DNA from: Escherichia coli
Lineage (GTDB): Bacteria; Pseudomonadota; Gammaproteobacteria; Enterobacterales; Enterobacteriaceae
Direction: 5' to 3' (one strand)
DNA length: 64,000 bases
Assembly: GCF_044647545.1 (NCBI RefSeq)
Contig: NZ_CP172818.1
The first letter of the stretch is position 1; every line of letters starts with the position of its first letter. The translations under genes were made by a program, and so were the position numbers. Positions 50,635 through 51,314 of the stretch are shown piece after piece. The notes beneath the pieces are model-generated. The model was not told where the DNA came from. It ran no database searches and worked only from the letters and a program-made list of their open reading frames with translations.

Positions 50635-50639
50635 TCATC

Positions 50640-51010
50640 TTTATAAGATGTTGAGTGATATTACTGATTCAAAAGTGTATTTAGTATTCCATTTTGTGTA
50701 CAATGTACCTGCCAGGGAGGGGAAAGGGAAAGGGAAAAATATTAAAAAAAACCCAATTTTTAACCCCCAAACAAACAAAATCCAAACCAATAATAAATAA
50801 AAGAAATTGAAAAAAAAACCCACCGGAACCCCCAAAAAAGGGTCTCCCATCCAAGAAGTGATTGGCAAAAGCCCGGAGGCGGTTCAAAAAAAAAAAGGGG
50901 TAGTGGAAAAATTTTTTTTCTCTCGAAAAAAAAATTTTTTTTTTTTTTTGACCAAAAAAAAAAAAAAAAAAAGAGAGAAAAAAAAAAAAAAAAAAAAAAA
51001 AAAAAAAGTT
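50640..51010. repeat. anomalous low-complexity block of A/T homopolymers and GGGAAA repeats; probably artefactual or synthetic
   Basis: Direct inspection: runs of 19-31 A, 16 T, repeated aaaaccc/gggaaa motifs; no coding potential. Confidence 0.85.
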
Positions 51011-51039
51011 GACGAAACTGCTCAAAGGTGAGGTATAAA

Positions 51040-51267
51040 ATGAGTTTTTTTGATGAGTTGAAAACCTCTCTGGAAGAGGCTGTCGAGATTAAACAAGGTT
51101 TAAAAGAACCTGCACGGGTGACCCGCTACGAAATTGCGGATGTTAAAGCTATTCGTGAGCAACTCAACTTTCGCAAATGTGATCAAAGCCGCAACTGGCA
51201 ATCAAAGCTAAAACTGATGCGAAGAAATCCTACGGGATATTGGCCAAAAGTACTTCCACAATTATAG
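51040..51267 (+). CDS. orphan HTH (XRE/HigA-like) antitoxin-like ORF, C-terminal half degenerate; possible pseudogene or non-native sequence
   Basis: N-terminus MSFFDELKTSLEEAVEIKQGLKEPARVTRYEIADVKAIREQL resembles XRE-type antitoxins; the downstream HTH is not intact; RBS aaaggtgagg and TTGACG upstream. Confidence 0.3.
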   Translation: MSFFDELKTSLEEAVEIKQGLKEPARVTRYEIADVKAIREQLNFRKCDQSRNWQSKLKLMRRNPTGYWPKVLPQL

Positions 51268-51314
51268 AAAATCCTGCCTTTTTTCGGAACTTCCCCATTA
51301 ATATTTAACTATTA

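Follow-up and report, generated by a model that had tools for sequence, protein, structure and literature searches.

An in-register, garbled toxin-nadS module between nadR and ettA in an Escherichia coli sequence, probably a technical corruption of a known addiction-type locus

The spacer between nadR and ettA in the window (the whole 64,000-nucleotide stretch of Escherichia coli DNA that was analysed) very probably holds a technical corruption of a known toxin-antitoxin (TA) locus and not a feature of a living genome. A non-biological process would have garbled the module in two blocks (50679-51007 and 51168-51303), and the low-complexity 'insert' and 'orphan degenerate ORF' of the original prediction would both be by-products of that corruption. 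That prediction left the choice between a decayed TA remnant and non-native sequence. The non-native reading, as an artefact, stands; natural decay without a toxin is not supported, because the toxin gene is present in register, the damage is sharply bounded in otherwise identical DNA, and its pattern is non-mutational.

Both flanking genes are intact. nadR (49402-50634, plus strand) encodes 410 aa, 100% identical to WP_000093833.1, and ettA (51356-53023, minus strand) encodes 555 aa, 100% identical to WP_000046749.1. They are convergent and separated by 721 bp, in agreement with the ~720 bp first reported, versus a native spacer of 765 bp, found at 2751384-2752148 of NZ_CP027579.1. The spacer starts with the region upstream of the TA operon (50635-50678, plus strand), which is of toxin type and identical to strain 2013C-4282. 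Garbled block A follows (50679-51007, plus strand), and the first ~370 bp of the spacer are low-complexity text, in which the homopolymer runs and repeats described earlier were located as three copies of GGGAAA (50720-50737), T15 (50935-50949), A19 (50954-50972) and A30 (50978-51007). Alignment to the native allele places the footprint of a RelE/ParE-family, HigB-2-like toxin gene at 50724-51038 (plus strand). An intact block (51008-51167, plus strand; 160/160 identical to the toxin-type allele) separates block A from garbled block B (51168-51303, plus strand), which in the alignment covers the helix-turn-helix (HTH) half and C-terminus of nadS. In the 75-aa ORF (51040-51267, plus strand), NadS residues 1-42 are followed by garbled text that ends at a premature stop. 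Between nadS and ettA, a hairpin read directly from the sequence (CCGGATGCG...CGCATCCGG, 9-bp stem, 51315-51344, not assigned to a strand) is intact and, by alignment, common to other genomes. From its sequence it is likely to be a bidirectional terminator or a REP-like element. The terminator scan made no call at the hairpin, and an Rfam search of 50400-51500 returned no RNA family.

The flanks of the locus are found in 5,424 of 5,426 complete E. coli genomes (megablast, query 50400-51600), and the whole query is covered in only 672 of them, all at 80-90% identity. A more sensitive search of the same genomes with the spacer only gives 673 full-length matches, with a top identity of 78.9%. In ~672 of the 5,426 genomes, about one in eight, an intact toxin gene and nadS lie between nadR and ettA, for example in 2013C-4282 (NZ_CP027579.1) and EC42405 (NZ_CP043414.1). 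The native toxin gene, 333 bp long and encoding 110 aa, is annotated as a 'type II toxin-antitoxin system RelE/ParE family toxin' (WP_000513551.1); it is followed after 1 nt by the 285-bp nadS, which encodes a 94-aa 'NadS family protein' (WP_000007436.1). The native toxin matches Pfam RelE (PF06296, 5.9e-10) and HigB-2 of Vibrio cholerae in the PDB (E=7.5e-17, 38% identity over 98 columns, residues 6-102). Native NadS scores 182.6 bits with the NCBIfam model NF041265 and has an HTH_3 domain at residues 35-79 (E=6.1e-10) that matches HigA-2 in the PDB (E=2.2e-6). The full-length pair is also present at ~72% nucleotide identity in 134 plasmid records, mostly of small mobilizable plasmids, from Hafnia, Rahnella, Citrobacter, Pectobacterium, Serratia, Yersinia and other hosts. 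Given its occurrence in ~672 genomes, the annotated pair, the family matches and the plasmid copies, the underlying locus is an ordinary, mobile and already annotated addiction-type module.

The native E. coli pair shares its toxin-first gene order with HigB-2/HigA-2 of V. cholerae (PDB 5JAA, 5JA8 and 8A0X), and native NadS and HigA-2 both have an N-terminal segment and a C-terminal HTH domain. The V. cholerae system is however a distant homolog and not an ortholog, and the E. coli antitoxin belongs to its own NCBI family (NadS, NF041265). By homology to VcHigBA2 (Hadzi et al. 2017, PMC5416850), the toxin of the intact module would be a ribosome-dependent mRNA endonuclease, a disordered N-terminal segment of NadS would fold onto the toxin and neutralise it, and a C-terminal HTH dimer would repress the operon.

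The window aligns to the native allele in register throughout, with the same site and gene orientation. The junction of the two genes is identical to native, with the toxin gene upstream and co-oriented, its TAA at 51036-51038 and the nadS ATG at 51040. The 329 bp of block A are 67.8% identical to native, with 89 substitutions and 22 deleted plus 2 inserted bases. The toxin footprint is 315 nt long versus 333 nt in the native gene; its start codon has changed from ATG to AAG, every frame is broken, and only the last nine codons (LTKLLKGEV) and the stop survive. The native allele thus has an open reading frame for a RelE/ParE-superfamily toxin and the window copy does not, and tblastn with the native toxin as query found no match in the window. 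The supposed insert, on the evidence of the alignment, is the toxin gene itself, garbled in register. The earlier statement that a toxin partner is missing therefore does not hold, as the toxin gene is present in register as the low-complexity stretch.

The errors in block A are graded and directional. Identity falls steadily from ~90% at the left to ~50% at the right, after which full identity is regained within one or two bases. Seventy-five of the 89 substitutions introduce the reference base found just before or just after the site, versus 47 +/- 3.7 (maximum 60) when the substituted-to bases were permuted among the mismatch sites (5,000 permutations). A is the product of 58 of the 89 substitutions and is itself the least replaced base (7/89), and transversions outnumber transitions (50 versus 39). 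Runs lengthen on average from 1.40 to 2.61, and A content rises from 33% in the native allele to 51% in the garbled text. Upstream of the native toxin start (window 50675-50710), two GTAC-N3-GTAC near-palindromes, GTACTTAGTAC and GTACAATGTAC, can be seen by eye. From their sequence they could be candidate NadS operator sites. An inverted-repeat search upstream of the native toxin found nothing at its thresholds. GTACTTAGTAC contains the two leftmost errors of block A, both C to T (50679 and 50686).

Between the two garbled blocks, the intact block runs from the 3' end of the toxin gene, with its TAA stop, to codon 42 of nadS. Of the whole module, K-12-type genomes share only a stretch that coincides with this block (51010-51153), although the block carries the toxin-type SNPs. 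The 75-aa ORF is nucleotide-identical to nadS over its first 42 codons, and this is why it is recognised as a NadS family protein, at 86.1 bits over residues 1-72 versus a curated NF041265 cut-off of 60 bits (whole-protein score). It has no Pfam match even at E<=10, and so no XRE/HTH_3 domain. The original description of this ORF, with a HigA/XRE-type N-terminus and a scrambled HTH half, is thus borne out. Compared with the native module, the NadS of the window lacks the HTH domain and ends early; the native nadS stop maps to ~51299-51301, inside block B.

Block B (136 bp) is 73.9% identical to native, with 14 substitutions and 26 deleted plus 2 inserted bases; the damage is heaviest at the left edge and lessens toward the right. 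Within it, 51171-51222 resembles the REP sequence with which K-12-type genomes continue at this point (local score 35.5, versus 14.5 +/- 2.3 for shuffles). The true toxin-type allele has no similarity to REP at this position (15.0, versus 15.6 +/- 2.4 for shuffles). Block B thus seems, from its sequence, to blend two mutually exclusive alleles. Such blending argues against mutation in place, because one molecule would not gain similarity to an allele that it does not contain.

The contrast with the surrounding DNA is strong. In the alignment, differing columns make up 113/351 (32%) of block A and 41/160 (26%) of block B, versus 4/738 (0.5%) elsewhere (Fisher p=4e-56 and 1e-28, respectively). 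Outside the two blocks, 50100-51900 is 100% identical to 2013C-4282, including the 160/160 positions between them. This full identity is only local, with 97.7-99.1% elsewhere in the window. The island underlying the spacer is thus natural and present in ~672 genomes, but the exact garbled spacer is found in none of the 5,426 complete E. coli genomes, and the homopolymer tracts in none of the ~672 that have the locus. Exact-pattern scans did not find the garbled text in species-representative genomes or JGI metagenomes, and exact-product look-ups of three of its ORFs found none in the gene-product index.

K-12-type genomes show what natural loss looks like at this site. The claim that nadR and ettA nearly abut in K-12 is not correct, because the spacer in K-12-type genomes is 307 bp long and contains REP sequence besides a nadS remnant of 168 bp. 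The remnant (L002:539-736, matching window 51010-51153) is preceded by the last ~25 nt of the toxin gene. Its product, WP_000007444.1, is annotated by PGAP and has 55 aa, of which the N-terminal ~46 residues are those of NadS, without the HTH; it scores 69.1 bits with the NadS model and so passes the cut-off. Like the window ORF, it is an HTH-less N-terminal NadS fragment. However, the K-12-type allele is a clean natural deletion with a REP insertion, common to most E. coli genomes, whereas the window has a full-length module in register with corrupted text. The 55-aa remnant has been reported as expressed in K-12 (PMC12350097). By analogy with HigA-2 the segment that it retains would neutralise the toxin, and one may speculate that the remnant counters HigB-2-like toxins of plasmids as an anti-addiction factor.

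The promoter proposed in front of the 75-aa ORF does not withstand inspection. TTGACG and TATAAA are separated by 19 nt and are not called by the consensus scan, which found no promoter in the window spacer. The motif belongs to the toxin gene, of which it forms the 3' coding end, and TATAAA includes the toxin TAA stop. The proposed RBS would be absent from any transcript started there, because it sits between the hexamers. In the native locus the promoter scan gave two hits, not above shuffle expectation and neither upstream of the toxin gene.

A complexity scan of the 64 kb revealed one further low-complexity patch, at 10480-11393, over mrr and the start of mdtM. It is 66% G, versus 30% in K-12 mrr, with runs of up to G116 (10998-11113), and each patch drifts toward the modal base of its native sequence. 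The patch begins within mdtM, 27 nt from the 5' end of the gene, which thereby loses its first nine codons. The 3' end of mrr can be aligned with the right ~100 nt of the patch, with errors that increase leftward. Nothing is recognisable in the left 800 nt; an exact match of 12 nt to L004 has marginal significance (p=0.03). The patch yields spurious poly-Gly and poly-Pro ORFs of 169-239 aa. BrnT/BrnA plus IS1, which many genomes carry between mdtM and yjiA, was considered as its source and rejected (score 33, versus 37 +/- 7 for shuffles).

A third lesion, at 45138-45178, is a telescoped deletion in which ~290 bp of the closest genomes are reduced to ~31 nt of fragments, with both sides 99.8% identical to those genomes. 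The lost DNA includes a whole 87-aa 'sigma factor-like HTH' gene between lplA and deoD, at a yjjJ/HipA-family locus, and two 'AT' dinucleotides are dropped just upstream. The lesion resembles the base skipping of block B, and its junction is spanned in one piece in none of the 5,426 genomes. It could also be a rare natural deletion.

The rest of the window appears sound. About 50 other reference genes are full length, without gaps or stops, and the differences from references fall mostly at third codon positions (555, versus 19 at second positions). Diffuse corruption of the whole window was therefore rejected, as the codon-position bias is natural and these genes are intact. At 14985-15118, tsr and btsT are nearly adjacent, as in K-12, and the junction text is not of low complexity. 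EC42405 has a ~5.9-kb island here, with genes for a MurR/RpiR regulator, a sodium:solute symporter, RidA, a D-aminoacylase and an amino-acid deaminase. The difference looks like ordinary accessory-island variation. Across 30000-50650 the best complete genome is 97.3% identical overall, and single segments are 99-100% identical to different strains; the codon-position pattern of the differences is natural. This region belongs either to a poorly sampled lineage or to a recombination mosaic.

Three readings in which the garbled text is real DNA have to be weighed against technical corruption. TA modules do decay, and this locus has its own natural decay series, in which the K-12-type remnant is accompanied by genomes that lack both genes. 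Pseudogenisation by ordinary mutation after loss of function is nevertheless very unlikely here, as it would have to place 32% and 26% differences in two blocks, 0.5% in the flanks and 0/160 between the blocks, through substitutions that copy neighbours, favour transversions and build homopolymers. It would also have to blend block B with another allele and to produce two more such patches in the same 64 kb, leaving no intermediate or identical allele among the 5,426 genomes. Neither flank-like divergence, nor an ordinary mutational spectrum, nor an allele shared by relatives, each of which a natural remnant should have, was found. It would be similarly surprising if the garbled DNA existed physically through engineering of the strain, or if the window were a designed or synthetic construct, with harmful accessory genes overwritten by filler. 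The sharp boundaries are as expected from such a design, and so is the selfish or toxic nature of the targets: the HigB-2-like toxin and its antitoxin, the Mrr endonuclease and the HTH gene at the yjjJ/HipA-family locus. However, engineered deletions leave clean scars or cassettes, unlike the in-register graded blur seen here; the G116 tracts, the loss of the first nine codons of mdtM and the allele blending do not fit a design either, and no vector, FRT, lox or marker sequence was seen.

That the three lesions coincide with toxin, restriction or addiction-type genes is also the sole support for a novel in-vivo hypermutation process, which would homopolymerise and silence three toxic or selfish genes in one lineage and spare their neighbours. 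This is extremely improbable: to our knowledge the spectrum matches that of no mutagenic system, blending with an allele that is not carried has no in-vivo rationale, and nothing similar is seen among the 5,426 genomes. Two known sources of programmed variation were rejected. Diversity-generating retroelements mutate adenines, and in block A adenine is the least replaced base and the commonest product. Phase-variable tracts are single, short and shared among strains, unlike the many irregular runs that replace coding sequence over 330 bp here.

Judged from the pattern alone, a technical cause is the most likely one. The window shares with assembly and consensus artefacts its A, T and G runs, neighbour-copy errors, skipped bases and sharp return to perfect sequence, as well as the presence of several patches on one contig that are absent from all other genomes. 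In two-colour Illumina chemistry a dark cycle gives a G call and mixed signal shifts calls toward A, and raw base-calling trouble could be the source of the homopolymer drift. However, the register-preserving blur and the allele blending favour a consensus or model-based step over raw base-calling artefacts. The boundaries follow pan-genome breakpoints and alleles are blended, neither of which raw base-calling explains, and both point to a step that pools information across haplotypes. Candidates are consensus building or polishing from reads that were mixed or wrongly recruited, gap filling influenced by a reference, and imputation or generation by a model. A computational origin is accordingly regarded as roughly twice as likely as a pure read-level artefact. 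The probable cause would be a computational step (consensus building, gap filling, imputation or generation) that had weak support for strain-specific accessory DNA, drifted to the locally commonest base and to homopolymers, skipped bases and, once, blended in the commoner K-12-type allele. We know of no single sequencing platform or assembler for which an in-register blur with exact re-synchronisation is a textbook signature. The nature of the damaged sites, all of them toxin, restriction or addiction-type genes, counts against a technical cause, and this choice of targets could hint at a biological or deliberate one; the same three sites are however also the structurally variable loci of the region.

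Taken at face value, the spacer could lead a gene caller or reader to annotate an orphan antitoxin, a low-complexity insert, poly-Lys, poly-Gly and poly-Pro ORFs and a story of TA decay. The sequence record would instead be corrupted in three or more patches, each of them at a structurally variable locus, and for this reason other oddities of the same source need to be checked against related genomes.
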